A stretch of DNA of 64,000 nucleotides, taken from positions 189,307-253,306 of the forward strand of contig CP179888.1 in assembly GCA_047456305.1 (NCBI GenBank), in the 5' to 3' direction. A program made the translations under genes and the position numbers. Shown in pieces: positions 12,708-49,597 of the stretch; the stretch's first letter is position 1; every line of letters begins with the position of its first letter. A model generated the notes under the pieces. The model saw nothing but the letters and a program-made list of their open reading frames with translations, ran no database searches and was not told the origin of the DNA. The stretch comes from Candidatus Nealsonbacteria bacterium. Its GTDB lineage: Bacteria; Patescibacteriota; Minisyncoccia; Minisyncoccales; CAZKCU01.

Positions 12708-13361
12708 ATGTCTTTTCTCGAAAAATTAAAAACCAAGCTTCCGAAGGAAGCGAAGGTGGAAAAGAAGACGAAGTCTTCTTTGACTAAAGGAATAGGGATT
12801 GAAAAAGAATTTGAGGAAAAACTGAAATCCGGTCCAAATTTTGCCGTCCAAAATTCAGAAAAGCCTGCCCCTCCGAATTTTGTTGCCAAAAGCCTGGAGG
12901 AATCTGATCAAACAAAAGAAAAGTCAAAAGAGAAAAAGAGATTAAAAGTTAAAGAGAAATTCACTAAATCTAAGCCAGAGATCCAGGAAGCAATAAAAGA
13001 AGGAAAAATTAAAAAAGAAAAGTGGTTTGAGGCAGAAGGAGAGTTGGCGGTTGATGTTTATCAAACAGAGAAAGAACTTGTTATCCTTTCTGCTATTGCT
13101 GGCCTGAAGCCAGAAGACATAAATATTTCTGGCCAAGGAGACGTAGTGATAATAAGAGGGAGGCGGGAAAGACCAGTTAAAGATGAAGAAAGAAATTATT
13201 TTTATCAGGAATGTTACTGGGGACCATTTTCAAAAGAAATTATTTTACCAGTAGAAGCTGACATCTCCAAAGCTGAAGCTTCAATGACAGAAGGGATTTT
13301 GATTATAAGAATACCGAAAATTGAAAGAGAAAAGGAAAAGAAAATAATAGTTAAAGAATAA
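12708..13361 (+). CDS. Hsp20/alpha-crystallin family small heat-shock protein with Lys/Glu-rich N-terminal extension
   Basis: C-terminal alpha-crystallin domain 'LAVDVYQTEKELVILSAIAGLKPEDINISGQGDVVIIRGRR ... GILIIRIPK'. ATG 12708 is preferred over the upstream TTG. Confidence 0.8.
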   Translation: MSFLEKLKTKLPKEAKVEKKTKSSLTKGIGIEKEFEEKLKSGPNFAVQNSEKPAPPNFVAKSLEESDQTKEKSKEKKRLKVKEKFTKSKPEIQEAIKEGKIKKEKWFEAEGELAVDVYQTEKELVILSAIAGLKPEDINISGQGDVVIIRGRRERPVKDEERNYFYQECYWGPFSKEIILPVEADISKAEASMTEGILIIRIPKIEREKEKKIIVKE

Positions 13362-19578: not shown

Positions 19579-22500
19579 ATGAAGAAATTAATTAAAAATT
19601 TTATTTTCGTAATTTTAATTTTCCTGATTATCTCGGGTATCTTTACCTTGTTTATCTCACCGCTTGAAAAAGAAAAAGAAATTTCTTTAACTCAATTAGT
19701 TGAAGAAATTAACCAGGAAAAAATTAAACAAATTACTATTTCTGGTTCAGAGCTTCAGATAATATACCAAGATGATACTAAAGCTAAATCTAGAAAAGAA
19801 ACAGAAACAGCTTTATCTGAATCTTTAATAAATTACGGAATAGATAAAGAAAAATTAAAAAAAGTGGAAATTGAAACAAAAAAAGAAAAAGAAAGTTTGT
19901 TTTGGTTATGGTCAACTCTAATAATTCTGCTTCCTTTAGTTTTATTTGGTTTATTTTTCTGGATGATGTTCCGTCAGGCCAAAACCGGAGTAATGCAGGC
20001 TTTTAATTTTTCAAAAGCCAAAGCTCGGCTTTTTGGCGCTGAAGGTCATCCAAAAGAAAAAATCAGTTTCAAAGATGTTGCCGGCTTAGAAGAGGCAAAA
20101 GAAGAACTAAAAGAAATCGTTGATTTCTTAAAAAATCCCAAAAAATATTTAAAGATGGGGGCGAGGATACCAAGAGGAGTTTTATTGATGGGGCCAGCTG
20201 GAACAGGAAAATGTGTAGTTGGAAGTACATTTATCTTAACTTCCAAGGGCTGGATAAAAATTCAAGATGTCCCTAAATATTTCAGAGTAAATGAAGAAAA
20301 TCAAGTAGCCGGCGCTGAAGTTTTCAGTATTAATCTAAAAACTTTAGAAAAGAAAAAAAACTTAGCCTCTCATTGGTATAATTTAGGGAAGCAAAAAACA
20401 ATTAAGATAACTTCTCGCAATGGAATCTCTCTTGAAGGAACACTAGAACATCCGGTAGTGATTACGGATAGAGATGGTAAAATGAAATTCAGAAAGTTAG
20501 AGGAAATTAAAAAAGGTGACCTTTTAGTTGTTAATTACAACCATCAAGTTTTTGGGAATTATAAAATTTTACCTGATAAGGAAACTGCTTATTTATTGGG
20601 TCTACTTTTGGGCGATGGCGGTTTATCAATTAAAAATAGAATATATTTTAGTAATGCAAATAAACAATTAGTTAAATTTGTTAAAAATTATTTCCAAAAA
20701 TATTTTGGTGTTATTCTTCATAAGGCTAAATCTAGAAAATACGATTGGCTCATTTCTGATTGGAAAGCTAAAGAAAAATTAAGAGAATATGGTATTTCAG
20801 AAAGTCATGCTAGAGGCAAAGAAATTCCAGAAAGTATAATATCCGGTCCTAAAGAATATCAAACTGAATTTATTAAGGGCTTATTTGACACGGATGGATC
20901 AGCAGGCCTCAAAAATTCGATTTTACAATTAGCCAGTGCCTCAAAGACACTAATTGCCCAGCTTCAAGTTCTGCTTCTCAATTTAGGAATAGTAAGCAAG
21001 ACAAGGAAAAAGCGTTCAAACCAAACTGGCGCTTATTATCATTATTTAGAAGTTTCAGGAGATTTTACTAAAAATTTCGCTCAAGAAATCGGATTTGAAA
21101 TAGAAGAAAAACAAAAAAAATTAGAAAAGATTCTAGCAAAAAGAAGAAATACAAATGTAAATACAGTTCCTTTTGCTGCAAAGAAAATTGAAACTCTCTG
21201 GCAATATTTAAAAAAAGATGGACGAAAATTTAATAGAGCTTTTTATAGAACTCTTACCTATAAGAGTATCAATGAATATATTAATAAAGTCCACAAAAAT
21301 CCTTCAAAACAAAAGGTAGATAAAATTTTAGAATTTTTTGAGAAAGAAAAAAAATCTATAAGAAATCTTTTAGAATTTAAACAATTATCAAAACTAGCCG
21401 ATAACACTTTCTTTTTCTCTCCTGTCATTGAAATAGAAAGAGGAAAAGATATAGTATATGATTTTACTGTTCCCAAAACTCATTCATTCGTAGCAAATGG
21501 ATTAATAAATCATAATACTTTATTAGCAAGAGCAGTTGCCGGTGAGGCTAATGTCCCTTTCTTTTCAATTGCTGGCTCAGAATTTATTGAGATGTTCGTA
21601 GGGGTTGGAAGCTCTCGAGTAAGAGATCTTTTCACTACTGCTAAAAAAGCAGCCCCTTCTTTGGTTTTTATTGATGAACTTGACGCTATTGGCAGACACC
21701 GGGGAGCTGGACTTGGCGGAGGACATGATGAAAGAGAGCAAACATTAAATCAAATTTTAGTAGAAATGGACGGCTTTGAAAGAGAAACAAATGTGATCAT
21801 TCTTTCAGCGACGAACAGGCCAGATATCCTGGACCCAGCTCTTTTGCGGCCCGGTAGATTTGATAGAAAAGTAGTTTTGGACTTGCCTGATATTAAGGGC
21901 CGGGAAGAAATTCTAAAAATTCATTGTCGAGGAAAACCCTTAGCCCTAAATATTAATTTGAGAGAAATTGCTGAAAGAACCCCAGGGTTTTCTGGTGCTG
22001 ATATAGCTAATGTTGTCAATGAAGCAGCGATTTTAGCTGCCAGAAGAAACAAAAACCAGGTTTATCAAGAAGAGTTTTTAGAATCAATTGAAAAAGTTTT
22101 ATTGGGTCCGGAAAGAAAAAGTCATATCTTGTCCAAAAAAGAAAAGGAAATCGCTGCTTTCCATGAAGCAGGTCACGCTTTGGTTTCTGCTTCTCTGCCT
22201 GAAGCTGAGCCGGTAAGGAAAATTTCAATTATTGCCAGAGGTATGGCTGCTGGCTATACCTTAAAAATGCCAGCTGAGGAGAGAAAAATTAAAACCAAAA
22301 AAGAATTTTTAGCTGAATTGGCAACTTTACTTGGTGGATACTGCGCTGAAAAATTGAAATTTAAAGAAATTACCACTGGGGCAGCTAATGATTTGAAAAG
22401 AGCTTCCGACTTAGCTAGAAAGTTGGTTAAAGAATACGGTATGTCTCCTTTAGGACCAATTTCTTTTGGTGAAAAAGAAGAATTGGTTTTCTTAGGAAAA

Positions 22501-22773
22501 GAGATTTCCGAGCAGAGAAATTATTCTGAAAAAGTAGCCGCTAAAATTGATAAAGAAGTTGAAAAATTTGTCAAAAATGCAGAAAAAGAAGCAACGAAAC
22601 TTTTATTCAAAAACAAAAATTTACTTGAAAAAATTGCCAAAACCTTAATTGAAAAAGAAACCATTGAAAAAGAGGAATTTGAGAGTTTAATTAAAGGAGA
22701 AAGGAAAACAGCCTACAAGAAATCCTTGTCAAAAACTGAAAAGCCAGTAAAAGTAAAAATTAGACAAGTGTAA
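19579..22773 (+). CDS. ftsH: ATP-dependent zinc metalloprotease FtsH, interrupted by an intein
   Basis: Two N-terminal TM helices. Walker A is split as 'GPAGTGK|C...HN|[11 protein letters not shown]'. Also Walker B 'VFIDELDA', SRH '[19 protein letters not shown]' and zinc site 'HEAGHAL'. Confidence 0.95.
20212..21516 (+). mobile_element. intein (435 aa) with LAGLIDADG homing-endonuclease domain in the FtsH P-loop
   Basis: Starts with Cys1 ('[13 protein letters not shown]', block A). Block B is 'GTLEHPVV'. LAGLIDADG motifs are '[10 protein letters not shown]' and '[10 protein letters not shown]'. Blocks F/G are '[21 protein letters not shown]' followed by the +1 Thr of GKT. Its removal restores '[18 protein letters not shown]'. 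Confidence 0.9.
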
Positions 22774-22930: not shown

Positions 22931-23611
22931 ATGCAACCGAAAATTATAGTCAAAGAGGATAAATCCTCTTTTCCATCCTTCGCTGCGGCTCGGCTATATG
23001 AAGATGAAAATGTTTTAGTAATTGATAAACCAGCAGGGGTAAATTCTGACGACTTTAAAAAGAGGGTTCACAGATTAGATAAAGACACTTCGGGAATATT
23101 TCTGGTAGCAAAAAACGATAGGGCCTTAGATTTTTTGCAAGAACAATTTAAAAACAGAAAAGTAAAAAAGAAATATTTAGCCCTGGTAATCGGCAATCTG
23201 AAAAATAACGAAGGTGAGATTGAAACCCTTATTGGCCGCTCACCGGGAAACAGAAGGAAACAAAAAGTATACTTGCCTCACGAACCAGGCTCCCAAGGAA
23301 AAAGAATTGCTGTTACCAAATATAAAGTGTTGCAAAGATTTAAAGATTATGATTTGATTGAGGTTGAGCCTCTTTCAGGCAGGAAGCATCAGATTAGAAC
23401 CCATTTTGCTTATTTGGGCCACCCCATAGCCGGTGACAAACTATATGGGTTTAAAAACCAGCTCTGCCCTAAAGAATTAAAAAGACAATTTTTACATGCC
23501 GGTTATCTTAAAATAAAGTTAACCGGTGGAGAAGTAAAGCCCACTGTTCACACAGAGGAATTTAAATCGGAATTGCCTGAAGATCTAAAAAAAGTTATTA
23601 AAAACTTATGA
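22931..23611 (+). CDS. RluA-family pseudouridine synthase (no S4 domain)
   Basis: 226 aa. '[16 protein letters not shown]', catalytic '[15 protein letters not shown]', '[24 protein letters not shown]'. The ATG is 1 nt after tRNA-Val. The N-terminal 20 aa are encoded by a dispersed hairpin repeat. Confidence 0.85.
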
Positions 23612-24093: not shown

Positions 24094-24248
24094 CTAAATA
24101 AAGTGAGGTTCGCCCGATCATCCCCGGTCATTCGACCGGGCCGAGTCCCTCCCTAGGCACCAGTATATTGAAAATAGTTCGAACACATTTCGTTGTCTTC
24201 GGCGAGGAAAGTTGTAAAAATTGCTAAAAGATTAATATCTCAAATTGA

Positions 24249-24866: not shown

Positions 24867-25002
24867 ATTTGAAATTCTAAATCCTAAATAATATCAAATA
24901 ACCTAAATCCAAATGACCAAAACGGTTTTGAATTTCAAACGTTTGAATTTTGGATTTGTTTCGGATTTAGATATTAGGATTTCGGATTTTTATTCTCTGA
25001 TT

Positions 25003-26535
25003 ATGGTTAAAAAGAAAGACCAAAACTTAATAACTCGTCCTCCAGTAGTGGTTGTTTTAGGTCACGTTGATCATGGAAAATCGACTTTGCTTTGTGCAAT
25101 TAAAGATTTCAAAATCACCGAGAAAGAGGCCGGAGGAATTACCCAACATATTGGAGCTTATGAGATTGAGCATCAGGGAAAATCAATTACTTTTATTGAT
25201 ACACCCGGCCATGAGGCCTTTTCAGCCATGCGTTCCAGGGGAGCCAAAGTTGCTGATATTGCCATTTTAGTGGTGGCGGCTGATGAAGGAGTGAAAACTC
25301 AGACAAAAGAAGCTTTATCTCATATTAAAAAATCAGGTCTGCCTTTAATTGTGGCAATAAATAAAATTGATAAACCTACAGCTGACCCAGAAAAGGTTAG
25401 AAGAGAATTATCCCGGGAGAATATTTTGGTTGAATCAATGGGAGGAAAAGTTCCCTCAGTTGAGGTTTCAGCAAAGACCGGTCAAGGGATTGAAGACCTT
25501 TTGGAATTAATATTACTGGTGGCTGAGATGGAGCAGTTAAAAGGAGATATAGTAATGCCAGCTGAAGGGGTAGTAATTGAGGCCTATTTGGATTCCCAGA
25601 GAGGACCAACCGCTACCTTACTTTTAGATAATGGAATTTTAAGACCAAGGGATATCATCGGAACTGATTCTTGTTTTGGAAAAGTAAAAAACTTAGAAAA
25701 TTTTCAAGAGATTGCCATTAAAGAAGCTTCTCCTTCAATGCCGGTAGTTGTTTTTGGCTTTGAAAACGTTCCTAAGGTTGGAGAGGAATTTAGAGTTTTT
25801 TCTGATATTGAATTGGCTAAAAATCATCTCCAAAAACCAGAGAAAAAAGTTTCACCAGTATTTTCTCTTGAGCCCGATCAAAGAGTCTTAAATCTAATTC
25901 TAAAAGCTGATGTCTTGGGATCGCTTGAAGCTATTGAAGAGGTTTTAAAGGAACTTCCCCAAGAAAAAGTTGTCTTAAGAATTCTAAAATCTGAGGTCGG
26001 CGAGATAAATGAATCTGATATTAAGTTGGCTAAAGGGTCTAAGGCTCAAGTTTTAGCTTTTCGAGTAAAAACAAATCCAATTGCTCAGTTGTTAGCTGAA
26101 AGAGAAAAAATTAAAATAATAGGATTTGAAGTAATTTATGAATTAGTTGAGGGAGTTCGGAAAATAATGGAAAAAATTATTAAGCCAGAAGTAGTCAGAA
26201 TTGATTTCGGGAAGGTTAAGATTTCAGCAATTTTTAGAACTGAGAAAAATCGCCAAATTTTAGGAGGAAAAGTTATTGAGGGAGAAATTAAAAAAGGGGC
26301 ATTAGTTGAAATTTTTAGACTACAACCCGCCCACCGCGTCCTCCCACCTTCGGCGGGCCCCGGCGAAGAAAAGGTCGGTCAGGGAAGGATTATTAATCTC
26401 CAGCGAGACAAAAAAGACGCAGAAAGAGTTAAAAAGGGAGAGAAATGCGGAGTATTATATGAGGGAGATGTCAAAATTGAAGAGGATGATGTTTTGATGA
26501 TTTATACTGAAGAGAGGAAAAAAGGAGAACTTTAA
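25003..26535 (+). CDS. infB: translation initiation factor IF-2 (short N-terminus)
   Basis: G-domain '[16 protein letters not shown]', 'DTPGHEAF', 'NKIDK', then domains II to C2. ATG 25003 (MVKKKD) is preferred over the ORF-track start at 24913, which lies in a repeat array. Contains a 56-nt GC-rich in-frame element at 26317-26372. Confidence 0.9.
26317..26372 (+). repeat. 56-nt GC-rich hairpin element, copy inside infB
   Basis: agactacaacccgcccaccgcgtcctcccaccttcggcgggccccggcgaagaaaa. About 86% identical to the reverse complement of 36611-36666 (pilin leader), but read in a different frame. Confidence 0.9.
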
Positions 26536-27077: not shown

Positions 27078-27824
27078 ATGGGAAATGTATATACAAGGCA
27101 CATTAATCACAACTTCTTTAAAAAATGGAACTCCAAGATGAGTTATGTTTTAGGCTATATTGTAGCCGATGGTTGTATTGCAATAAGCAAAGATAGAAAA
27201 AGCCATCCTTTTACATTAAATATAACTTCTGCTGATTTGAAGCACTTATATTTGCTTAAAGAAACACTAGAATCTGAACATAAGATTAGTAAAAAATCTC
27301 GAAAAGCGGATAATAACGGATATCAATTACAAATTCGTAACCATATAATAACTAAAGATTTGATGAATTTAGGGATATTCCCTAGGAAAACATATAATTT
27401 AAATCCTATAAAAGTTCCAGAAAAATATTTCCCTGATTTTATTCGGGGATTTTTTGATGGTGACGGTTCAGTTTATATTTATAAAGTTAACGGAGTTCCG
27501 CAAATTAAGGCTTCGTTTAGCAATCCGAGCTTACCTTTTATTGCCAAACTCAACCAAGATCTTTGTAGAAAAATGGGAATTTCTATGAAAACCATCCATG
27601 AAGATAAGAATAAAAGAAGAAAGATTCCTTTATACTATATTGATTTTTATATCGATGATTGTGAAAAATTTGCTGAATTTATGTACCGAAACAACTCCTC
27701 TTTATTTCTTCTTCGCAAATGCAAAATTTTTGAAAAATGGAAATTGATAAAAAGGCGACATTATATAAAACAAAATTATCCTTCAAAAGTAGGCTGGCAT
27801 TTAAACCAAAAAGTCTTCACTTAA
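27078..27824 (+). CDS. free-standing LAGLIDADG-family homing endonuclease-like protein
   Basis: 248 aa. Two motifs, 'LGYIVADGCIA' and 'IRGFFDGDGSV'. Starts 13 nt after tRNA-Leu(UAA). The true start may be the internal Met at 27139. Confidence 0.75.
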   Translation: MGNVYTRHINHNFFKKWNSKMSYVLGYIVADGCIAISKDRKSHPFTLNITSADLKHLYLLKETLESEHKISKKSRKADNNGYQLQIRNHIITKDLMNLGIFPRKTYNLNPIKVPEKYFPDFIRGFFDGDGSVYIYKVNGVPQIKASFSNPSLPFIAKLNQDLCRKMGISMKTIHEDKNKRRKIPLYYIDFYIDDCEKFAEFMYRNNSSLFLLRKCKIFEKWKLIKRRHYIKQNYPSKVGWHLNQKVFT

Positions 27825-27983: not shown

Positions 27984-28496
27984 ATGGAAAAATTAAATCC
28001 TAAAGCAGTTTGGATATTCTTTTTCCAATTCCTTAGTCTTGGATTAATTTTAGCTTTAATGCTAGGATATTTCTTTTGGGCACTTATGGTTAAATTTGAG
28101 TTTAATTGGTGGATAGTAATTCTCTTTTTGGCCGTTATTTGGATTTTTGGTAGTTATGGTTGGGCTAAATTATATTACAATTTCTATAAGTTTGAACTTA
28201 CTGAGGAAGCCTTTAAAAAAGAGCATGGTGTAATTTGGAAGCGATATATTTCTATCCCTTATGAAAGGATTCAAAATATAGATATTCACCGTGGAATACT
28301 TGCCCGGATTTTAGGTTTAAGCGATCTTATGATTCAAACTGCCGGCTATACTGGAGTCTACCGAGGGGGTGGTCTTCTGGGTACATTGGGAGGAAGAGAT
28401 CCTGAAGGAAAGCTTCCTGGTCTTTCTAAAGAAAGAGCTGAAGAAATAAGAGAAGAGTTAATAAGAAGAACAAGGGGAACAAAATCAGGATTATAA
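27984..28496 (+). CDS. bacterial PH-domain (bPH_2, YdbS/YdbT-like) membrane protein
   Basis: 170 aa. Two N-terminal TM helices, then 'ISIPYERIQNIDIHRGILARILGLSDLMIQTAG'. Confidence 0.65.
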   Translation: MEKLNPKAVWIFFFQFLSLGLILALMLGYFFWALMVKFEFNWWIVILFLAVIWIFGSYGWAKLYYNFYKFELTEEAFKKEHGVIWKRYISIPYERIQNIDIHRGILARILGLSDLMIQTAGYTGVYRGGGLLGTLGGRDPEGKLPGLSKERAEEIREELIRRTRGTKSGL

Positions 28497-29255: not shown

Positions 29256-29441
29256 ATTAGCTTATCCAGATAACTTGTCAAGGGTTAGCTTATGGAGCGG
29301 GTGAGGCGAAGAGAACGAAGTTCTCTTCTTCATCTTCGCTTCTTTCGGAAGCTCGGTAAGAGATGAATCTCTTCTTTGCTCACCGAAGCTTTAGCTGAGG
29401 TAAAAAAGAGGGTTTTCCCTCTTTGTCTGCGCTATCGCTTG

Positions 29442-29513
29442 AGCGGGTGAAGGGAATCGAACCCTCTTCTTGATCTTGGCAAGATCACATAATAACCGTT
29501 ATACGACACCCGC
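29442..29513 (-). tRNA. tRNA-Gly(GCC)
   Basis: 72 nt. Acceptor GCGGGTG/CACCCGC, anticodon stem TGATC/GATCA, loop TTGCCAA, T-arm GAGGG-TTCGATT-CCCTT. Confidence 0.8.
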
Positions 29514-31163: not shown

Positions 31164-31192
31164 ATTTTACCTAAAATCCTTAATTTAGTCAA
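31164..31192 (-). promoter_or_regulatory. sigma70-like promoter of tRNA-Arg(UCU)/tRNA-His
   Basis: The minus strand reads TTGACT, 17 nt, TAAAAT. The predicted +1 is about 8 nt before the tRNA 5' end. Confidence 0.55.
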
Positions 31193-31333
31193 CGAGCTTC
31201 CGTAGGAAGCAACTCGAAGAGATAAATCTCTTCTCCACCCTTCGCTGCGGCTCGGGTAGTTAAAGAAGAGTGCGAAGAAAAGTTTTTCTTCTTTCGTCTT
31301 GTCTTCGACTCGACGGACGAAGTTCTCTTCGCC

Positions 31334-31657
31334 TTATCTAAAGAGATCGGGGTATTCTTTCAATTCAGTTTCTTCAAATCTTCTTCCCCTGGCCTCCCAT
31401 TCATCTAATATTTTTTGGTAGATTTTTTCTTCAAATTGAAGAGGTTTTTTAATAATTTGGGGTTCTGCTTTCTCTGCCAAAATGCTGTATTTATAGAAAA
31501 TAATACCACTCAAAATTAGGGACAAAAACAAAAGAAATAGGAAAGTCAAAAAAGTATTCTCCCCTAAAATTCTTGGAAGTTTTTTAAAGAAGATTTTAAT
31601 TTTACCTGCAAGCTGTATCTTGCGAAGCAAGGCAGAGGGCTTAAATTTTATTAGCAT
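31334..31657 (-). CDS. small bitopic membrane protein at the distal end of the pilus operon (unknown function)
   Basis: 107 aa. One TM helix (FLTFLFLLFLSLILSGIIFY) and a charged C-terminus. There is a 1-nt gap to the PilO-like ORF. Confidence 0.4.
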   Translation of the reverse strand: MLIKFKPSALLRKIQLAGKIKIFFKKLPRILGENTFLTFLFLLFLSLILSGIIFYKYSILAEKAEPQIIKKPLQFEEKIYQKILDEWEARGRRFEETELKEYPDLFR

Positions 31658-33861: not shown

Positions 33862-35664
33862 TTAGTAGGTTTCTTCCCAATGTTCAATATTTATTATTGG
33901 TGAAAATTGGGGCGGTTCTGGTTCCCACCCTAATCCATACCATACTATATCTTTATCATAAGTAATATCAAACCAGGTATAAATTTTGCTCTCTATCTTA
34001 ACTTTGCCTCCTATGATGGCCCCCTTAATATCAAAGTATTGTAATATGCTAGTTACTTTTATTTCCTCGATAGCATACAATACCCCTGTAATATCAATAT
34101 CGTGCCAAAAGAAAGAATATTTACCAAATTCTATCTTCTTTTTAGCTAAAAGACCGCAAGGATGGTTTTGGCACCACGTAGTACAGTCTGTAATATAATC
34201 AGGGTCACATACTGTTACACTGGAATCTCCATATTGGCTAGGTTCATCGTGTTCTTTCCACTCCAATTTGTTCCCAATTTTAATCTCTTTAGCTACCAAG
34301 GCTCCATTAACTACCAGATGGCGACCTCCCTTTAATTCAACATTTTTGTCAACATAAGTAATCTCGCTGTTGAGAACCAATTTACCTCCTTCTCCTACAT
34401 TCCATAAAAGAGTTTTAAAATCATCCTCGGAAAAAACACATCGGCTATCAGACAGAACCTTAGTATCAGTATCATCATAACCTAAAACTTTACATTGGGC
34501 TGAATTTTCTGCCTCTTGAGCCCTACATTTGAAAGAATGACTATTGGGGTTATCACACTCAGGGTAATCGGAATCAAAATCGACCATTGGAACAGAAACT
34601 GTAGGCTCTAAAGCTTCTGGGGGAGGAGGACATCTACCGGTAGGACAGTTTGGATCACATCTGTCACTAGCACAAACAGCTTCGGCAGTCAAATTACTAT
34701 CAGCTGCGCCATGTTTAAATTCAAGTCTGTCTACCGCAAAAGCTATACCTTCTAAATTCTCTATTATCTCGGTCTCAGGATCATCTTTAGTATCTGGATC
34801 ATCATTAACTACGAGATGAGTCAACCAGCCTTCAATTTTTATCTTTTCATTGCTAAAAATATTAGCCCCATCAACCCCCTGCTCACCAATCTTCACACTA
34901 CTATCCTTGACTTTAAGCTCTTTCTCCCCAGCAAAGAGAGCATTGCCTTTACCATTATGGACTTCCACATTGCTAAAATCTTCAATTTTTAGCGCTTCGT
35001 TAGAAAAAATATTTCCATCATAAACCTTTAGATCGCTCCTTTTAATTTTAAGCTCTTTTTCTTTTCCAGTACAACCAGCAAAGAGAGCATTGCCTCCAGG
35101 GCTATGGACTTCCACATTGCTAAAATTTTCAATTACTAATTTTCCATTAGAAAAAATATTTCCATCATAAACCCTCACCTGACTTCGCTTAATTTTAAGC
35201 TCTTTCCCCCCAGCAAAGATAGCAGCTTTTTCGAGCGGATCGGCTAAAGCTTTGAATACTGTGGTCTTGATTACTCTTTGAGCGGTTTTTCCATTAAGAT
35301 TGATGGTTGCCTTAGAAACAATTCTTCCTCGTCCACAAGCAGAATTTTGAATCTCAACTCTATAGAAACTATTGGGAAATAATGGGTCGGTCTTTTCAAA
35401 ATTTGCTGACCAGTTTTCACAACCTGGCTTAGTTATAAAATCACTTTTCCAAGCAGGGTCGCCAGCTGTTGCTATCTCATCATTTTTCAATTTCCAGATT
35501 GCCTGGTTAATTCCTGCCTCGGCTAAATAATAGGCCCTATTTCCTGCCTCTTGGCTTTTAGAAATCTTAGATTCAGTTAAAGCAAAGGATAGAAAATAGA
35601 CACTTAAAAGTAGTAATATCCCTAAGCTGAAAAAAGCAATGATGGTAATAATTCCTTTGTTCAT
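33862..35664 (-). CDS. large PilX-N-like pilus-associated protein (putative tip/minor pilin-like)
   Basis: 600 aa. Hydrophobic N-terminus plus 'AGNRAYYLAEAGINQAIWKL' (PilX_N-like). Three ~45-aa internal repeats ('KELKIKRS.L/VKVYDGNIFSN..L.IE.FSNVEVH...GNALFAG') and a Cys-rich middle region. Confidence 0.55.
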   Translation of the reverse strand: MNKGIITIIAFFSLGILLLLSVYFLSFALTESKISKSQEAGNRAYYLAEAGINQAIWKLKNDEIATAGDPAWKSDFITKPGCENWSANFEKTDPLFPNSFYRVEIQNSACGRGRIVSKATINLNGKTAQRVIKTTVFKALADPLEKAAIFAGGKELKIKRSQVRVYDGNIFSNGKLVIENFSNVEVHSPGGNALFAGCTGKEKELKIKRSDLKVYDGNIFSNEALKIEDFSNVEVHNGKGNALFAGEKELKVKDSSVKIGEQGVDGANIFSNEKIKIEGWLTHLVVNDDPDTKDDPETEIIENLEGIAFAVDRLEFKHGAADSNLTAEAVCASDRCDPNCPTGRCPPPPEALEPTVSVPMVDFDSDYPECDNPNSHSFKCRAQEAENSAQCKVLGYDDTDTKVLSDSRCVFSEDDFKTLLWNVGEGGKLVLNSEITYVDKNVELKGGRHLVVNGALVAKEIKIGNKLEWKEHDEPSQYGDSSVTVCDPDYITDCTTWCQNHPCGLLAKKKIEFGKYSFFWHDIDITGVLYAIEEIKVTSILQYFDIKGAIIGGKVKIESKIYTWFDITYDKDIVWYGLGWEPEPPQFSPIINIEHWEETY

Positions 35665-35735: not shown

Positions 35736-36704
35736 TTAGAAATTTCTGCCAAAAATTTTAGTTTCCATTTTCAGGGTTTTTCCTCCTTTCGTTAAAGTCA
35801 GGGCAATATTAATAACCTCAGAACCCCAGAATTCTAAATTATCTACATATTCACCAATTACTCGAAGCTCTTCCAAAATAACCTCTAACAAGCATTCTCC
35901 AGCACCAGTGTCAGGAGTAGCATCCCGAGAAGCATAGGTCCCTGGAGTTTTACAGCTCGCTTCTGCTTGACAACCACCGTCTGTTGAATCTTCTGAAATA
36001 CAATAAGTAATGACTTTTCTCTGGATATTCTGGATATTATTGCTAGTATCCAGGTAATAATGAATATAGTAATAAGAAGTATCTATTTTATACTCTGAAG
36101 TATCATTAGGATTTGTATCCCAATCACTATCTACCTCAGCTTTTTGATTTGTTTCATTATAACTAACAATCTTTCTTATTTGCCCCTTCCCAGTCCCGCC
36201 GATTATTTCTATAAACATATCTTTATAGAAATCTTTTTCATCTGAAGCAGTTGAAGCTAAAGTAATATAGGAAACACCTTCACCATCAACACCTCCTCCT
36301 TGAGCAATATCTTCTTCAGAAATCGAGGATAGATGACCGTCTTGAAATAGAATTTCATCTTTGGGGCTAGCAAGGTCGGTGGCTATTAGTTGGGCTTGAC
36401 GAATTTCTCTAGTTAATCTCTCTAAGATTACTCTTCCATTTTGAGTGAGTTCAGCTGCAATTTCTTCTTCCCGGTAAGTGCGGTGACTCAATATATAGGT
36501 TCCATAAATTGCTCCAATAACTAAAATAAGAATAGTAATGGTCACTAAAAGTTCAGTTAGGGTAAAGCTCTTCTGAAGTCTGAAGTCTGAAGTCTGAAGA
36601 TCTGAAGATTTTTTCTTCGTAGGGGCCCACCGAAGGTGGGAGGATGTGGCGGGAGGGTTGTAGTCTTCGTACTTCGTACTTCTTTTTATTTCTTCATACT
36701 TCAT
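35736..36704 (-). CDS. type IV pilin-like protein with atypically long repeat-encoded leader
   Basis: 322 aa. The class III signal core 'SFTLTELLVTITILILVIGAIYG' is preceded by a 46-aa leader with no alternative start codon. Position -1 is Ser, not Gly. Large globular C-domain. Confidence 0.65.
   Translation of the reverse strand: MKYEEIKRSTKYEDYNPPATSSHLRWAPTKKKSSDLQTSDFRLQKSFTLTELLVTITILILVIGAIYGTYILSHRTYREEEIAAELTQNGRVILERLTREIRQAQLIATDLASPKDEILFQDGHLSSISEEDIAQGGGVDGEGVSYITLASTASDEKDFYKDMFIEIIGGTGKGQIRKIVSYNETNQKAEVDSDWDTNPNDTSEYKIDTSYYYIHYYLDTSNNIQNIQRKVITYCISEDSTDGGCQAEASCKTPGTYASRDATPDTGAGECLLEVILEELRVIGEYVDNLEFWGSEVINIALTLTKGGKTLKMETKIFGRNF
36611..36666 (-). repeat. 56-nt GC-rich hairpin element, copy inside the pilin leader
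   Basis: The reverse complement reads agactacaaccctcccgccacatcctcccaccttcggtgggcccctacgaagaaaa. Homologous to 26317-26372 in infB. Flanked by the heptamer arrays TCTGAAG (36572-36607) and CTTCrTA (36665-36716). Confidence 0.9.
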
Positions 36705-36719
36705 ACTTCGTACTTCTTT

Positions 36720-37139
36720 TTATCTTTTAGCAATTAGAGTAATAATTTCTACTTTTTTAGGAAATGTTCTAAGAGCTGATTTCCAATATACAGTTACTTT
36801 TACTTGTTTTAAGCCCGGGTCAGGATAACAACTGACTTCGCTAAAATCTTCGCCGTCAAGGCAAGTTATTTCTGTCTCTCTTTTGAAGTTACTAAAATTA
36901 GCTATCGTTTCATAATCTTCAATGTCAGGACAAACATCGTCAGAACAAAGCACCTTGCTGTATGATTTAGAAAGATTTTCTTCTATTTTCGCCTGGCCAA
37001 GCTGGCTGGCTATTGTAGCCATTCGGGCAGACCTTTCTATTTGGACTGCTAAAGGAAAAGCATTTAAAACCCCAAGAATTCCTATTGTTAAAATAAAAAT
37101 TGCTATTATTGTCTCAATTAGGGTGAAACCCTTTTTCAT
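36720..37139 (-). CDS. type IV pilin / pseudopilin (prepilin-type N-terminal cleavage/methylation domain)
   Basis: 139 aa. 'MKKGFTLIETIIAIFILTIGILGV'. Confidence 0.8.
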   Translation of the reverse strand: MKKGFTLIETIIAIFILTIGILGVLNAFPLAVQIERSARMATIASQLGQAKIEENLSKSYSKVLCSDDVCPDIEDYETIANFSNFKRETEITCLDGEDFSEVSCYPDPGLKQVKVTVYWKSALRTFPKKVEIITLIAKR

Positions 37140-37654: not shown

Positions 37655-38875
37655 TTAGATTGCTCCCAGCATTGAATACATTGGCTGGATCATTGAGATG
37701 GCAAAAAAGCCAACCATTGCTCCAATAATAAGCATCAAAACAGGTTCTATCACTGCTGATAAGTTTTTAGTAGCATTTCCTACTTCAGTCTCAAAAAAAT
37801 CAGCCAGTTTTCCTAAAACCTCTGAAGTCTCCCCGGTCTCCTCCCCTACTTCAATCATCTGAATAATTATCGAAGGGTAAATATCCTGATAGGGTTTTAG
37901 GGCTTCTGAAAGCTTACTTCCTTTCCTGACTTTCTCAGCAGATTCTGCTATTGCCTCTCGAAAATAAATATTCCCCAAGGCTGCTGAGACAATTTCTAAA
38001 GTCCTGACAATAGGAACCCCAGAGGCAAAAAGAGAGCTTAAGGTTCTGACTGTGTAGGCAGAATTAGTTTTTCTAATAATTGGGGAAATAATAGGAATTT
38101 TTAAAGAGAGAAAATCTACCATTCTCTTTCCTCTTTTTGTTTTTAAAATTATCCGAAAGACAAAGAAAAGTCCAATAACTATCAAAATACCGAAAAACCA
38201 TTTTTCAGCTAAAAAAGTGCCAAAGGAAATTACCAATTTAGTAGTAGGAGGAAGTTCAACGTTCAAATCCCTAAAAGTTTCTGCTAATTTGGGGACAACC
38301 ATAACTAACATCAAAAATCCAATGCCTATCATGGCGCAAATGATGACGGCTGGATAAATCATTGCCCCTTTTATTTTTGATTTTAATTCATATTCTCTTT
38401 CCATCTGCTGAGTTAAAGTTTTTAAAACTTCTTCCAGAGTTCCAGCTTCTTCTCCAACTTTTACCATACTAATAAAAAGTTCAGAGAAAATGTCGGGGTG
38501 CTTTTGTAAAGAGTCAGAAAAACTTTTTCCTCTGGTTATCTCCTCAGCTACATTAAATAGAGCCTTCTCGAATTTTTTACTTTTTGTCTGTAAGGCTAAA
38601 ATTCCTAGAGCCCTGGGCAAAGAAATACCAGCTGCAATCATCACCTGTAAATTTTTGGTAAACATCATTTTCTCAGTTAAGGAAACTCTTCCTAAAAATG
38701 GTAAAGAGATTTTGAATTTCTTTCTTTTAATCTCTTCCCCTTCCAAACTTGCCGAAATTAAAACATAGCCTTCTTGACGAAGGACTCTGGCCAGTTCTGA
38801 CTTATCTTTAGCTTCTAGAGTTCCTGATCTATCCTCTCCTTTTAGAGATTTGGCAGTATAGAAATATTTAGGCAA
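37655..38875 (-). CDS. pilC: type IV pilus platform protein PilC (GspF family)
   Basis: Two GspF repeats ('MMFTKNLQVMIAAGISLPRAL', 'AYTVRTLSSLFASGVPIVRTL') and three TM helices. The ORF is open to 39031, but those 52 codons are a GC-rich dispersed repeat. TTG 38875 gives the canonical 'MPKYFYTAKSLKGE' N-terminus. Confidence 0.8.
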   Translation of the reverse strand: MPKYFYTAKSLKGEDRSGTLEAKDKSELARVLRQEGYVLISASLEGEEIKRKKFKISLPFLGRVSLTEKMMFTKNLQVMIAAGISLPRALGILALQTKSKKFEKALFNVAEEITRGKSFSDSLQKHPDIFSELFISMVKVGEEAGTLEEVLKTLTQQMEREYELKSKIKGAMIYPAVIICAMIGIGFLMLVMVVPKLAETFRDLNVELPPTTKLVISFGTFLAEKWFFGILIVIGLFFVFRIILKTKRGKRMVDFLSLKIPIISPIIRKTNSAYTVRTLSSLFASGVPIVRTLEIVSAALGNIYFREAIAESAEKVRKGSKLSEALKPYQDIYPSIIIQMIEVGEETGETSEVLGKLADFFETEVGNATKNLSAVIEPVLMLIIGAMVGFFAISMIQPMYSMLGAI

Positions 38876-38891
38876 TGGAGTGAGGCAACAA

Positions 38892-39018
38892 GTTTCAAAG
38901 TAGCTTTCGTAGGCGGCTGAGCATGGTCTCGCCGAAGGCGAGTCAGCCGCCGAGAACGCAGGCTGCCAAACCTCGCTGGGGTTTGGACAGCCGGTACTTT
39001 GAAAACTTCGTTGCCGAG
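38892..39018 (+). repeat. ~110-nt GC-rich nested-hairpin element (copy X)
   Basis: GGCGGCTGA-GCATGGT-CTCGCC-GAA-GGCGAG-TCAGCCGCC ... CTCGCTGGG ... CCGAGC. Homologous to 56998-57108, with compensatory stem changes. Confidence 0.8.
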
Positions 39019-39023
39019 CATAA

Positions 39024-40772
39024 TTATTCAATAATGACCCTTAATACTTCTTCAATTGATGTTATTCCCTGGGCTGCTTTAATAAATCCGTCCTCAATCA
39101 TTGTTCTCATTCCTTCTTTTTGGGCCTGGGCCTGAATTTGATCAGAGGTTGCTTCTTTAACAATTAGTTCTTTTATGGTTTCGGTAACATCTAAAACTTC
39201 GAAAATCCCAATCCTGCCACTATAACCCTCCGGGCATTCCTTGGTTGATTTTGGTCGATAAAATTCGATTTCCTTAAAAGTGGCTTTCGGTTTTACCAAT
39301 TTTTCCTCCCTTAAGATTTTTAGAATCCGGTCTAAATCACAATATTTTTTCAAATTTTTTAGTTCTGGTTCTTTTAGAGTGTACTTAGTTTTTTCTTTAC
39401 AAAGTTTTCTAACCAGTCTTTGGGCTAAAATAATTTCAAGGGTTGAGGAAAGCAAAAATGGCTCTGTCTTCATATCGATCAATCTGGGGATAGCTCCAGC
39501 AGCATCGGTAGTATGCAAAGTAGATAAGACTAAATGGCCAGTTAAGGCGGCATTAATAGCTAAAGAAGCTGTTTCGTTATCTCTAATTTCTCCCACCATA
39601 ATAATATCGGGGTCCTGACGAACCAAAGACCTGAGACCTGAAGCAAAGGTTAAACCAATTTTTGAATTAACCTGAGTTTGGTTAATTCTTGGCATTCGAT
39701 ATTCAATTGGGTCTTCAATGGTTGAGATATTTACCCCGGGAATATTCAGAATTTCCATCATGGCATACAAAGAGGTGGTTTTTCCACAGCCGGTTGGTCC
39801 GGTAACAAGAATCATCCCTACTGGTTTTCTCAAATTATCCTGAACTCTTTCTAAGGCTTCGTCTCTTAATCCTAATCCCTCTAAGGTAAGAACTTTGGCG
39901 GTTTCAGGCAATAGTCTCATAACAATTTTTTCTCCGTTAAAAACCGGCAAAACCGAGACTCTAATTGAGTATCTGTAATCCTCGGTTTCTATCTTAAAAC
40001 GGCCATCCTGGGGAAGTCTATGCTCGTCTAACTTTAAATTGGAGAGAACTTTTATTCTGGCTACAATTCCTGAGCTAACTTGTTTAGGAAGAGTCATAGC
40101 ATCATGTAAAATACCATCGATTCGATAGCGGACTATAACTTCTTTTTCCAGGGGTTCTATATGGATATCAGAAGCTCGCTGTAAAATTGCGTGCTTCATT
40201 AGGGTATCAACAATCCTAACCACTGGTAGTTCTTCGGCTGCTTTTAAAAGTTCTTCTTTCTCCTCAACTACTTCCTCTTCCTTTATCGGTTTAATAATCC
40301 CAGCTTCCTTTTTGATAATTTCCCCGAATTCAGCCTCGAGGGTTTTTTGGTATTGATTTAAAACGTTTTTGATGGAATTTGGAGTAGTCAGTCTTGGCAG
40401 AATTTTTAAATTTGCTGTCTTTTTAATAAATTCAATGGTTCTTAAATCTTCCGGGTCAAGCATAGCCACTTCTAAATTATTTCCCTTTTTTCTAAAGGCA
40501 ATAATATTATGACTCCTGGCAATTGGTTCGGGAATAAATTTTAGAACTTCTGGCGAGATTTTTTCTTTTTCTAAGTTTATAAAAGGAATCCCTAAAATAT
40601 AGGCTTCGAGTTTAATTAGCTCTTCTTGGGTAATTAAACCATCTGAAATTAAAACATCTCCGACTTTCTGGCGGGTAATTTCTGCTTTTTTTAGGGCTTT
40701 CTCAAACTGGTCTTTGGTAACTAAACCAGCATCCAAAAGAAAGGCTTTTAATTGTCCTGATTCAACTCGCAT
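39024..40772 (-). CDS. pilB: type IV pilus assembly ATPase PilB (GspE family)
   Basis: 582 aa. N-terminal GspE_N/MshEN-like domain, Walker A 'GPTGCGKTT', Asp box, Walker B 'IIMVGEIRD', His box 'GHLVLSTLHT', and a tetracysteine-like region. Confidence 0.9.
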   Translation of the reverse strand: MRVESGQLKAFLLDAGLVTKDQFEKALKKAEITRQKVGDVLISDGLITQEELIKLEAYILGIPFINLEKEKISPEVLKFIPEPIARSHNIIAFRKKGNNLEVAMLDPEDLRTIEFIKKTANLKILPRLTTPNSIKNVLNQYQKTLEAEFGEIIKKEAGIIKPIKEEEVVEEKEELLKAAEELPVVRIVDTLMKHAILQRASDIHIEPLEKEVIVRYRIDGILHDAMTLPKQVSSGIVARIKVLSNLKLDEHRLPQDGRFKIETEDYRYSIRVSVLPVFNGEKIVMRLLPETAKVLTLEGLGLRDEALERVQDNLRKPVGMILVTGPTGCGKTTSLYAMMEILNIPGVNISTIEDPIEYRMPRINQTQVNSKIGLTFASGLRSLVRQDPDIIMVGEIRDNETASLAINAALTGHLVLSTLHTTDAAGAIPRLIDMKTEPFLLSSTLEIILAQRLVRKLCKEKTKYTLKEPELKNLKKYCDLDRILKILREEKLVKPKATFKEIEFYRPKSTKECPEGYSGRIGIFEVLDVTETIKELIVKEATSDQIQAQAQKEGMRTMIEDGFIKAAQGITSIEEVLRVIIE

Positions 40773-42442: not shown

Positions 42443-42496
42443 CAAGCGATAGCGCAGAGCCAAGAAGAGATTTATCTCTTCGACTGCTCCAAACAG

Positions 42497-42520
42497 AAAA
42501 CGGCTCAAGTGAGCCGTTTT
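42497..42520. terminator. bidirectional rho-independent terminator
   Basis: AAAACGGCTC-AAGT-GAGCCGTTTT, between the tRNA pair (+) and rny (-). Confidence 0.65.
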
Positions 42521-42586
42521 CCAATTCTCAATTTTCAATTACCCGAGCGTTAGCGAAGGGTGAAAAAGAGGATTTATCCTCTTCGA

Positions 42587-47300: not shown

Positions 47301-47655
47301 TATTTCCTGAACAACCTCGGTAGTAAACAGTTCTCCTTTTGTATACTCTACTCCCGGAACAATAGTAGCTCCAGGAGCCATAGCTGGTAGAACCGCAGTT
47401 TTTATATTTTCTACAAGAACCACAGCCATAACGGGTGCAATATTTCCTTTGACGATAGTTACCAGAACAAGAACAGTTATAGCTATACCAAGAATATACT
47501 GCACTACAGTAATTTAGATGCTCAGTAATTGAAGACAGCCTAATACCAGACTGACCGTCCTCCAAAGATTTGTCAAAAGACCAATCAACCCTTAAAGGAA
47601 TAAGAGCTATCAAAAAAGCAAAAAATATAGAAATAAGAATTATTTTCTTATTCAT
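44335..47655 (-). CDS. giant secreted cysteine-rich repeat protein with C-terminal Ig-like, FN3-like and PKD-like domains (putative adhesin)
   Basis: 1106 aa. N-terminal signal/anchor (IILISIFFAFLIALIPL). Six 47-aa units 'CGSTSYGSWSYYCSG...KRRTVYYRGCSGSSCYY.T.T.....'. Further Cys-rich modules, including two 52-aa 'LPDCGHTC.NHGT...WPDCSCTRRSPASGY.IIGTWNSSDCPNCTGY' units. Then 'STLSWSS...SC' Ig-like, 'SAYRVQVDNNSNF...YYWRLKVWD' FN3-like and 'ITLRVTDSDG' PKD-like segments. Confidence 0.7.
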   Translation of the reverse strand: MNKKIILISIFFAFLIALIPLRVDWSFDKSLEDGQSGIRLSSITEHLNYCSAVYSWYSYNCSCSGNYRQRKYCTRYGCGSCRKYKNCGSTSYGSWSYYCSGSRVYKRRTVYYRGCSGNKCYSYTRTRTSYVKNCGSTSYGSWSYYCSGSRVYKRRTVYSRGCSGGSCYYRTSTQTSYVTNCGSTSYGSWSYYCSGSRVYKRRTVYYRGCSGSSCYYYTRTQTSYVTYCGSTSYGSWSYYCSGSSLYKKRTVYYRGCSGSSCYYFTGTQTSYVTYCGSTSYGSWSYYCSGNYLRRKRTVYYRGCSGSSCYYFTGTNSEPVRSCGSTSYGSWSYYCSGDYLRRKRTVYYRGCSGSSCYYFTGTNSEPVTYCGKRTCTSATYYCSGSERRYTFSCSGGCSGGACWVFKKYDYLSKDCGSDECGDWGDNYCKDGDVYHKTICVKRGCSESECYERTEPDEERVEDCEFDCADGRCLIYPVCWIDDMCPECYYCSWGRCKSIPGTTKTSLCGKSIPSGNCSQQEGGYSGCIGNQACLGGFIECSRRLFLSYCRVWEPDWEDCGPKTCTDGEYHCDGTKLYYKTWCSGGCFRDTGHCQDFGLPSEVYLRDCGPITSKTGPSYCDYKYGRWWECQKTVYSGGCIEGVGCQKENAIINCVACPYGCSEGKCREKPILPDCGHTCLNHGTASVGWPDCSCTRRSPASGYKIIGTWNSSDCPNCTGYKKTLPDCGHTCVNHGTTSHVWPDCSCTRRSPASGYEIIGTWNSSDCPNCTGYRKIGCSCTSWANGSCGGGSCSATQRQQTRTCTPSGCDSQSRCVADSACLVPILNLFANPSSIDKGQSSTLSWSSSNTSSCSWTAGLSGSVPTSGSRPVSPSITTSYSMKCTGPGGSISRSTTVTIITVIPNQPPSATNLKVVQPDYCLSGPAAYFSWTFTDPDPGDTQSAYRVQVDNNSNFSKPEDDSGKVTSSSNSYATILGKLKYNNTYYWRLKVWDNKGLDSNWISGPSFSTPTHACPEIDFSWSPFKPSVNEDVLFVDQSTVYGGTTKESWFWTFQDGSPASSTEQNPTAKFPSTGEKDITLRVTDSDGFSCSRTKTLNSQLPLPIWKEIAPF
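46552..47397 (-). repeat. 6 x 141-bp tandem repeats inside the giant gene
   Basis: aa 87-368 consist of six consecutive 47-aa units with high DNA-level identity (for example, the recurring ggaaccatagctggtggagcc... blocks), followed by a degenerate seventh unit. Confidence 0.9.
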
Positions 47656-49293: not shown

Positions 49294-49348
49294 TTCTTCC
49301 TCCTTAGTTTTCTTTCCCTATTAATAAATATTTAAATATTCTAATAAG

Positions 49349-49570: not shown

Positions 49571-49597
49571 TTCTCTGATTTTTTTTCTAACCTTACG

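Follow-up and report, generated by a model that had tools for sequence, protein, structure and literature searches.

We analyzed a 64,000-nt stretch of the genome of a Candidatus Nealsonbacteria bacterium (contig CP179888.1, positions 189,307 to 253,306 of the forward strand; hereafter the window), in which a 42-nt GC-rich element occurs once inside infB, the gene for translation initiation factor IF-2, and once in the leader of a pilin-like gene. The element probably belongs to a family of short, non-autonomous, selfish mobile DNA elements of the Candidate Phyla Radiation (CPR, or Patescibacteria), similar to the Rickettsia palindromic elements (RPEs) and the repetitive extragenic palindromes (REPs) and translated through by the genes that carry it. 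Insertion places an exact block after a host AGA and, in most cases, before a T, with neither duplication nor loss of host bases, and comparison of copies and relatives demonstrates, at the sequence level, recent gain, frame-independent occupancy, conserved ends and decay of old copies. CPR genomes are small and streamlined and are usually described as repeat-poor; here a tiny mobile element appears to be rewriting some of the most conserved CPR genes (IF-2, PheT, RpoD, UvrC and ribosomal proteins), an effect visible between genomes that are 94% identical.

The two copies in the window

Copy 1 (CTACAACCCGCCCACCGCGTCCTCCCACCTTCGGCGGGCCCC) lies at 26320-26361 (+) and adds 42 nt, or 14 amino acids, in frame to infB (24913-26535, +; 540 aa; Pfam GTP_EFTU, IF-2 and EF-G_D2) directly after R469, its boundaries being set by the empty sites of loci L020 and L021. 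The IF-2 of the window is 100% identical to one deposited at NCBI for Ca. Nealsonbacteria. Locus L020 is about 94% identical to the window in nucleotide sequence over 2.4 kb and has a clean empty site in infB, and L021-L023 are 21-kb syntenic loci with 85-95% identity. In the DNA alignment, the relatives without the insert read ...GAAATTTTTAGA|GGCGAAGAAAAGG..., with CTACAACCCGCCCACCGCGTCCTCCCACCTTCGGCGGGCCCC at the position of the bar in the window; the empty site in L020 and L021 is ...TTTTTAGA|GGCGAAG..., with the 42-nt block at that point in the window, and the junction changes from AGA|GGC (empty) to AGA[42]GGC (filled), with zero bases duplicated or lost. The AGA at 26317-26319 (+) is a native IF-2 arginine codon that forms the invariant 5' flank of the family, AGA or AGG being found at this position also in IF-2 orthologues without the insert, and GGCGAAGAAAA on the 3' side of the copy consists of the host codons Gly-Glu-Glu-Lys, which are present in orthologues lacking the insert as well. 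An earlier sequence-only reading of the window had described a 56-nt insertion of 18 amino acids at this place; the insertion itself was borne out, but its size has to be reduced to 42 nt and 14 amino acids, since the 56-nt match comprises 3 native, 42 inserted and 11 native nucleotides in infB. The GC content of copy 1 is 0.74 in comparison to about 0.36 for the window, which is AT-rich throughout (range 0.31-0.42).

Alignment of the IF-2 orthologues showed that the peptide is not broadly shared among them: 11 of the 13 other aligned sequences have no insertion at this position, including the two closest ones (97% and 88% amino acid identity), and the DNA differs there by a clean 42 nt. The same infB insertion is present in an independent assembly with 97% identity (L056), which excludes an assembly artefact. 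Copy 1 is the sole clean GC-rich block gained within a coding region along the roughly 21 kb that are syntenic with L021; besides it, the window gained an intein in ftsH and, at the N-terminus of rluA, a 48-nt repeat of a different family.

When aligned to the Thermus thermophilus IF2 structures (5lmv/3j4j), copy 1 falls on a gap where two strands of domain C2 are joined by the turn 'VRVLRD-G-QVIW', and the AlphaFold2 model of IF-2 places it in a coil between strands 464-470 and 485-496, with low confidence (mean pLDDT of 56 for the C-terminal half). As judged by these alignments, copy 1 sits in a beta-turn of IF-2 domain C2. Two more distant IF-2 proteins hold unrelated insertions of 8-10 amino acids at the same loop, and the position thus appears permissive. 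A 24-nt insert (TCAACCTCTGCGGGAAAAGGTGTA) at this loop in IF-2 P0023 was considered as a remnant of the element and is not claimed as such, the resemblance being faint at best. A separate observation concerns the IF-2 gene of another CPR locus (L062, 3237-4925; P0070), in which a 20-aa insertion in the G domain, VGNPPSSPPTINLRTDKKAT (GGT AAC CCT CCT TCG TCT CCT CCT ACG...), may be a different or decayed C-rich element.

Copy 2 (CTACAACCCTCCCGCCACATCCTCCCACCTTCGGTGGGCCCC) lies at 36622-36663 (-), is preceded by AGA at 36664-36666, and is read as DYNPPATSSHLRWAP in the leader of a pilin-like open reading frame (ORF) at 35736-36704 (-), whose 322-aa product has an N_methyl motif at residues 42-67 and a leader of 46 aa preceding S|FTLTE. 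The leader is composed, in order, of a (GAAGTAY)n heptamer array (36664-36716, -, 5' of the copy and within the leader ORF), the AGA, the 42-nt element, and a (CTTCAGA)n heptamer array (36572-36607, -, 3' of the copy); the two arrays can pair with each other in a fold of 36570-36715 (z = -4.6). The homologous pilin-like gene in the related genome L021 begins MKS|FTLIE, while the window has the codons CAG AAG AGC at the MKS position and no in-frame start between the element and FTLTE, and the ORF can therefore start only 46 codons upstream, which makes for an abnormally long leader. Leaders of this kind are cleaved off by prepilin peptidase, so that an insertion in the leader would leave the mature pilin unaltered. 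We also note that a 1.1-kb metagenome contig (L059, BARV01007848.1) is a rearranged mosaic of window positions 36505-37078 and 38234-38725 in which the pilin leader and element occur twice, the cause being a mis-assembly or else a genuine inversion at the repeat.

The two stretches at 26317-26372 (+) and 36611-36666 (-) are listed as an inverted repeat pair of 56 nt with 88% complementarity, and they are real and lie within the IF-2 and N_methyl pilin-like ORFs, as first reported; the near-match was recovered, although direct counting gives 49 of 56 identical positions instead of the 48 counted before. The 22-nt core CCTCCCACCTTCGGYGGGCCCC occurs twice in the window in comparison to 0.00 occurrences expected from 100 dinucleotide-preserving shuffles. 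A covariance model built from other copies (R1) scored the infB copy at 71.1 bits and the pilin copy at 68.7 bits (E about 1e-15) and found no third copy in the 64-kb window. These counts cover the 64 kb of the window. The likeness of the 3' flanks (CGAAGAAAA) is weak (empirical p of about 0.02 for semi-global flank similarity), and co-mobilization of the 3' flank was rejected as a cause of the 56-nt match in favor of coincidence, the pilin flank continuing the local GAAGTAC heptamer array and being absent from the other copies. As had been claimed, the two copies are translated in different frames, giving the 14-aa peptide in IF-2 and DYNPPATSSHLRWAP in the pilin.

Ends, variants and host genes of the family

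The family was collected by a genome scan with the 22-mer, using one genome per species, which gave 19 loci, and by a metagenome scan with CTACRACCCNCCCNCCNCNTCCTCCCACC, which gave 37 contigs; after removal of duplicates and of one chance match, about 30 independent sites were left. The element is thus not restricted to the two loci of the window, and its exact presence or absence in infB, its occurrence at about 30 unrelated CPR sites and its use of all three frames agree with the initial proposal of a mobile nucleotide-level element that spares ORFs. The whole element, with its left arm AGACTACRACCCRCCCACC, recurs in three CPR metagenome-assembled genomes, labelled Saccharibacteria, Nealsonbacteria and Jorgensenbacteria. 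Because the metagenome pattern prescribed the left 29 nt, they look invariant by construction, and contigs with conserved genes are possibly over-represented in the sample; the covariance model additionally recovered diverged and truncated copies.

The family pattern is AGACTACRACCCNCCCNCC...GGYGGGCCCC. The canonical unit of 42 nt is strongly strand-asymmetric, starting with a 5' arm poor in G and rich in C (CTACAACCCRCCCACCRCRTCCT), which is followed by a hairpin of 6 bp (CCCACC-loop-GGYGGG) and a terminal CCCC. AGA stands immediately 5' of 30 of the 30 non-redundant copies, the 3' end is GGYGGGCCCC in all copies, and T follows at +1 in 24 of the 30, ahead of an A-rich stretch at +2 to +4; none of these features was imposed by the search pattern. 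No inverted repeat is formed by the ends CTACAACCC and GGGCCCC. Longer forms of 60 nt (L035) and 90 nt (L021 and L053) differ in their interior while retaining the 5' end and the TGGGCCCC|T 3' end of the family, and constant termini combined with a variable interior are the pattern expected of sequences that are recognized by a mobilizing enzyme. The 90-nt form is more palindromic than the 42-nt unit, its sequence is unrelated to that of the RPEs, and the L021 copy of it is missing from the corresponding tRNA spacer of the window, which is a presence/absence difference in the opposite direction to that at infB.

The hairpin spans 15 of the 42 nt and is single, being located 4 nt from the 3' end with none at the 5' end. 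Its loop varies across the family (TTC, AAA, AAAA, GAA, TTT and TCC), and in five copies the stem is lengthened by 9 nt, to give 51-nt units, in a compensatory manner (CGCC/GGCG, CCGAC/GTCGG and CCGCC/GGCGG). Across variants, 89.7% of the cells are paired and 8 cells are changed on both sides, which was matched by 0 of 500 shuffles. In copy 1 the hairpin is CCCACC-TTC-GGCGGG at 26343-26357 (+), with an A.C mismatch on the plus strand and a G.T on the other. The CCCAC hairpin noted previously is present, but it amounts to 6 bp only, is mismatched in infB, and the evidence that it matters is modest. An alternative long-range helix between columns 10-15 and 54-59 fits the A/G-T/C co-variation and was rejected as not significant (31/500 and 65/500 shuffles). 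A tRNA-derived origin was likewise rejected: the resemblance of GCGGGTTGTAGTC (complementary to the left arm) to the T-arm of the window tRNA-Leu(taa) gave a best local alignment score of 21, in comparison to 18.4 +/- 2.1 (maximum 27) for shuffled elements.

Database comparisons gave no Rfam 15 match at the gathering threshold for the window and the 19 loci, and Rfam in E-value mode gave only a chance-level match to a plant miRNA (E = 0.86). There was no IMG/VR match to either pattern among viral sequences, and the three encoded peptides yielded one candidate only in a set of 5.8 billion proteins, for which the word index is ill-suited to 15-mers.

The 27 coding copies, all within long ORFs, are spread over about 20 gene families, and every ORF remains open. 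The hosts are unrelated to one another and mostly essential, and include enzymes and factors (IF-2, PheT at two sites, a DegT-type aminotransferase, FemAB, UvrC at two sites, and RNase HII), ribosomal proteins (S2 at both the N- and the C-terminus, L18, L22, L23, L24 and L31), and others (a transglycosylase, a tRNA-synthetase anticodon domain, a hydrolase, glucose-6-phosphate isomerase and sigma-70, RpoD). Pairwise alignments of PheT (two sites), S2 and UvrC orthologues with and without a copy show gaps of exactly 14 residues, and for annotation and phylogenomics this would mean that 14-residue lineage-specific insertions in marker proteins are repeat copies and not adaptive features. The sigma-70 gene of L060 (583-1869, -) carries two full copies in different frames and a truncated third within about 370 nt of its N-terminal region. 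Truncated 5' fragments embedded in ORFs (DYNPPTTQQG and DYNPATHIEE) look like decaying old insertions as far as the sequences tell. In L007 (150-270, -), a 40-nt copy is flanked on either side by about 30 nt of the 5' end of a gene (..AAACAAATTAAAGA), as though a local duplication had accompanied the insertion and recreated the gene start.

Of the coding copies, 7, 11 and 9 fall in the three frames, whose peptides are LQPAH..., TTTRPPHPPTFGGPL and a third one of 15 letters, respectively; the search pattern forced neither this use of frames nor the shared sense orientation. A protein-level module, such as a short Pro-rich linker or motif gained by both proteins, could draw on the fact that the encoded peptides are rich in Pro, Ser and Thr and suited to a flexible linker, yet with conservation at the nucleotide level and three about equally used frames producing three unrelated peptides, this reading is effectively refuted by the frame distribution, and the first description of the element as something other than a protein domain holds. 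Chance or an assembly artefact, which we regard as just as improbable, is opposed by the zero expectation for the 22-nt core in the shuffles and by the recurrence of the same insertions in independent assemblies (infB in L056, and a PheT insertion common to L006, L028, L049 and L058). For the study of protein evolution, the family provides a natural replicated experiment in which three different 14-mers have been placed in essential proteins.

The canonical lengths of 42, 51, 60 and 90 nt are all multiples of three, as are those of the canonical non-coding copies, and the sense strand of the element has zero stop codons in all frames, with two of the three antisense frames being open too. The element, having landed in sense orientation in a tolerant part of the gene (the turn of IF-2 domain C2, or a cleaved prepilin leader), leaves the gene open and would simply be translated as 14 extra residues, the sequence of which is set by the frame; open frames and 3n lengths are what this step is drawn from. 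It is very improbable that the element is instead left untranslated, as a mini-intron removed from the mRNA or through ribosomal bypass as in T4 gene 60 and the 'byp' elements of Magnusiomyces, with the host proteins unchanged. Such an explanation would fit the few members of 40, 41 or 43 nt that lie within open ORFs, and the likeness to byps (GC-rich hairpin inserts in coding genes of an AT-rich genome), but bypass is unneeded where the canonical units are 3n long and open in all sense frames, the infB junctions (AGA ... CCC|GGC) have no matching take-off and landing codons, no stop codon stands at the 5' edge of the element, and no ribozyme or intron model matched.

All 27 coding copies are in sense orientation, the C-rich strand being the mRNA strand, where stop codons alone would predict a sense bias of about 60:40 (p about 1e-6 for the observed 27:0). 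The orientation follows the gene strand, as the two window copies lie on opposite strands 10 kb apart and two copies in L030 lie on opposite strands 2.3 kb apart, both in sense; the GC skew in the window tracks gene orientation as well. Because orientation follows the gene strand over 2-10 kb, a pure replication-strand bias is improbable and selection or transcription-linked insertion is indicated, and because a single antisense intergenic copy exists, selection is favored of these two. Selection against the G-rich antisense form would be the simplest account of the sense-only occupancy of coding DNA. The antisense copy, in L025, lies in the loop of a terminator hairpin and is antisense to the neighboring genes, and deletion of the exact 42 nt restores CCCGAGA-TAAAC-TCTCGGG and a T-run on the gene strand. 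Further non-coding copies are located in rRNA-operon spacers, in sense orientation.

The host variety and the positions at termini and turns suggest that the insertions would be selfish, neutral-to-slightly-deleterious passengers and not functional modules. An alternative is a cis-acting signal kept by selection for the benefit of the host, in the form of a C-rich, G-poor Rho- or RNase-binding tract with a hairpin, or of a DNA structural motif. It would account for the sense orientation of the 27 coding copies and of two rRNA-operon spacer copies, for the near-identity of the element in hosts whose core proteins are 49-66% identical, for the same site being filled in diverged DegT genes, for the hairpin being kept despite loop changes with compensatory stem extensions, and for an excess in highly expressed translation genes. 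We nevertheless consider a host-beneficial signal unlikely, given the presence/absence difference in an essential gene between 94%-identical genomes, positions without evident logic (N-termini, C-termini, internal loops, an antisense terminator loop and tRNA spacers), the decay series of truncated copies, the occurrence of two copies only in the 64-kb window, the absence of the element from 34 kb of two other CPR IF-2 loci, and the lack of any matching Rfam family.

Proposed mobilization and relation to known repeats

The RPEs (Ogata et al. 2000, 2002) are, according to the passages dealing with them in two later articles, dispersed selfish DNA located in frame in many housekeeping genes, with a length of about 100-150 bp, a mostly palindromic and CGTC-tagged sequence, and one conserved peptide per family (PMC10969869, PMC3733652). 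The CPR element resembles them as a short dispersed repeat in the reduced, AT-rich genome of a host-dependent bacterium, inserted in unrelated housekeeping genes that stay open and encoding peptides at tolerant surface positions. It differs from them in its 42-nt length, its mostly unpaired C-rich arm and 6-bp stem, its ends (CTAC...CCCC), its phylum, its use in three frames and its constant position after AGA, and it is set apart from RPE-1 to RPE-10 by description.

The REPs are GC-rich stem-loops of 20-40 nt with a terminal conserved tetranucleotide and with no terminal inverted repeats or target duplications, and together with REPINs they are mobilized by REP-associated tyrosine transposases (RAYT, or TnpA-REP) of the HUH type (PMC3733652, PMC3116915, PMC3479197). 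In Opitutus, Thauera, Xanthomonas and others, GTAG- or CGTC-tagged REPs also occur within genes, among them repair and tRNA synthetase genes (PMC10969869, PMC3733652). The likeness extends to REPs that are inside ORFs or inserted in small palindromes or terminators, as the L025 copy is here, and to the G-rich strand of the CPR element, which ends exactly in GTAG. In REPs, however, the GTAG is 5'-terminal and abuts the stem, whereas the CPR element carries it 3'-terminally on the G-rich strand, 22 nt away from the stem, and REPs are mainly extragenic and often form inverted doublets, while the CPR copies were found mostly single and intragenic. No RAYT gene was found among the 42 scanned ORFs of the window, which covers 64 kb of a 639-kb genome.

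Transposons of the IS200/IS605 ('peel and paste') and IS91/Helitron types insert 3' of a short conserved host sequence without target duplication, and Helitrons insert between a host A and T. The IS200/IS605 elements have hairpins at both ends and are oriented by the replication strand, and IS91/Helitron elements are kilobases long and encode their own enzyme. The IS200/IS605 mechanism has been summarized for IS608 and ISDra2 (PMC6006769). The CPR element shares with HUH transposons a fixed short host sequence on the 5' side (here AGA) and the lack of duplication and of terminal inverted repeats, with Helitrons an A^T junction (AGA^T), and it resembles them in part by its 3'-subterminal hairpin, in contrast to which it has a single hairpin, an orientation set by the gene strand, and no cognate enzyme among the searched sequences. 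The lack of terminal inverted repeats and of target-site duplication likewise separates it from classical, DDE-derived miniature inverted-repeat transposable elements.

Short GC-rich hairpin elements inside coding genes of AT-rich, compact genomes are also represented by the GC clusters of yeast mitochondria and the byps of Magnusiomyces mitochondria. The byps, reported by Lang et al. in 2014, are reported to be inserts of 27-55 nt that are rich in GC, carry hairpins and lie within the coding genes of an AT-rich genome. They are skipped by the ribosome and need not keep the frame. These elements are organellar, while the CPR element is frame-preserving and has no bypass signals.

Since an invariant 5' flank, the absence of duplication and of terminal inverted repeats, and a subterminal 3' hairpin form an HUH signature, a single-strand transposition by an HUH endonuclease (of the IS200/IS605, REP/RAYT or IS91/Helitron type) supplied in trans may be proposed. 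Site-specific AGA^T insertion by such a trans-acting enzyme is our favored, though circumstantial, explanation. For transposon biology, the element would be among the smallest with a defined target (AGA^T) and no duplication, and it points to a trans-acting CPR enzyme.

Several results weigh against a selfish element mobilized and translated in this way. No transposase domain was detected in the 42 window ORFs that were scanned, and no IS200-like TnpA in 508 kb of element-bearing DNA, the latter by tblastn with an approximate query, which is a weak test. The element has one hairpin only in comparison to the two at the ends of IS200/IS605, and its CTAC/GTAG tag has a polarity opposite to that of classical REPs and stands 22 nt from the stem. 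Lagging-strand targeting alone would not predict an orientation that tracks transcription, although selection in coding DNA could mask a replication bias. Insertion into hairpin loops or single-stranded targets was rejected, as the degree of structure of the reconstructed empty sites did not exceed that of random AGAT sites (13/31 in comparison to 33% lying in hairpin loops; Mann-Whitney p = 0.85). The infB copy has an imperfect hairpin that folds no more stably than shuffled sequence. That the element is translated is deduced from open frames and 3n lengths, and members of a diverged sub-family are 40-43 nt long; one 43-nt copy changes frame within the element, in the Lys-rich tail of L22. 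The search pattern itself accounts for part of the conservation seen in the left arm. Finally, the same DegT site is occupied in two hosts that are 58% identical, by 42- and 51-nt variants, and these could represent long-term conservation, and hence function, in place of repeated insertion.

Full-text literature searches returned no account of the motif or its peptides, and none of in-frame repeats in CPR/Patescibacteria. The sequence-only reading had called the repeats apparently undescribed, which is upheld for the motif and not for the general phenomenon, in-frame repeats of the REP and RPE types being known in other phyla. The CPR 42-nt element works like an RPE or REP but lacks several features that define membership in either, and apparently it has not been described before.

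The 22-nt 3' module CCTCCCACCTTCGGYGGGCCCC, usually followed by TCC, was also found at 16 non-CPR loci in comparison to about 0.1-1 expected by chance. These loci (L002-L005 and L008-L019) are lineage-specific repeat units of Bacteroidales, Lachnospiraceae, Alphaproteobacteria and Salidesulfovibrio (a Desulfovibrio relative), one of which (L004) lies within an L10 leader. Their similarity covers model positions 22-45 and leaves out the CPR left arm, and TTCGCTTCGCTC in the Bacteroidales units recurs in the 90-nt CPR form. The sharing may reflect either common descent with horizontal spread or convergence in a small sequence space of GC-rich hairpins. A more speculative and rather doubtful extension is that modular GC-rich micro-elements (CCTCCCACCTTCGGYGGGCCCC(T) plus TTCGCTTCGCTC) form a superfamily reaching across phyla and moved by a duplication-free AGA^T mechanism, of which the 42-nt unit is the CPR branch, its 'frame-neutral' design (3n length, sense frames free of stops, C-rich sense strand) letting it colonize essential genes such as those for IF-2, sigma-70 and ribosomal proteins. 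Such a superfamily, if real, would be a significant and unrecognized source of peptide insertions in streamlined CPR proteomes, and a 22-nt core common to the repeats of four other phyla could connect families that are now treated as unrelated.

Other repeats and mobile elements in the window

The sequence-only reading had grouped the infB and pilin copies with repeats in comF, recG, S1, rluA, pnp and pilC. The grouping did not hold, as these belong to different repeat families, and only for rluA was a lineage-specific insertion in frame confirmed. Dispersed repeats of a second family (..AAGAGGATAAATCCTCTT..CCTTCGCTGCGGCTCGG..) occur at 22946-23005, 31214-31264 and 42451-42590, and a copy at 22937-22996 forms a window-specific 48-nt in-frame N-terminal addition to an rluA-like pseudouridine synthase in comparison to L021, which independently supports the idea of several frame-tolerant repeat families in the window. 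More GC-rich islands (0.72-0.78 GC) with hairpins of their own (e.g., GGTCTCGCCGAAGGCGAGTC) are located at 38911-38981, 55904-55981, 56713-56767, 56997-57052 and 24110-24163, none of which belongs to the 42-nt family; the island at 38911-38981 is in the N-terminal region of a PilC/T2SSF ORF (37655-39031, -), upstream of the conserved domain. Window-specific intergenic insertions were observed by tRNA genes at 29305-29450 (146 nt, related to 12732-12785) and at 31187-31339 (a cluster of 10-35-nt blocks), both composed of GAAG/CTTC-rich palindromic repeats.

The ftsH gene (19579-22773, +) contains an intein with a LAGLIDADG homing endonuclease in a block at about 20211-21526 (Pfam Intein_splicing 243-646 and LAGLIDADG_3 426-505), the protein having 1064 aa in comparison to 640 aa in L021, which lacks the block. 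Free-standing LAGLIDADG endonuclease ORFs are found at 27078-27824 (+) and 2546-3589 (-). The first of these and a bPH_2 ORF at 27984-28496 are both absent from L020, L021 and L056, and the second lies among tRNA genes, with its 3' end overlapping tRNA-Ser (2489-2575).

Longer repeats were also present. An ORF of 1106 aa with no assigned function (44335-47655, -) has six tandem repeats of 141 nt (47 codons) at 46432-47418, and repeats of 147-156 nt are located at 34830-35224 and 45342-45650. The region 49324-50541, which has few long ORFs, contains direct repeats about 540 nt apart (49324-49385, 49866-49927 and 50427-50466), and two 77-nt copies of a terminator-like unit are located at 50051-50127 and 50465-50541.

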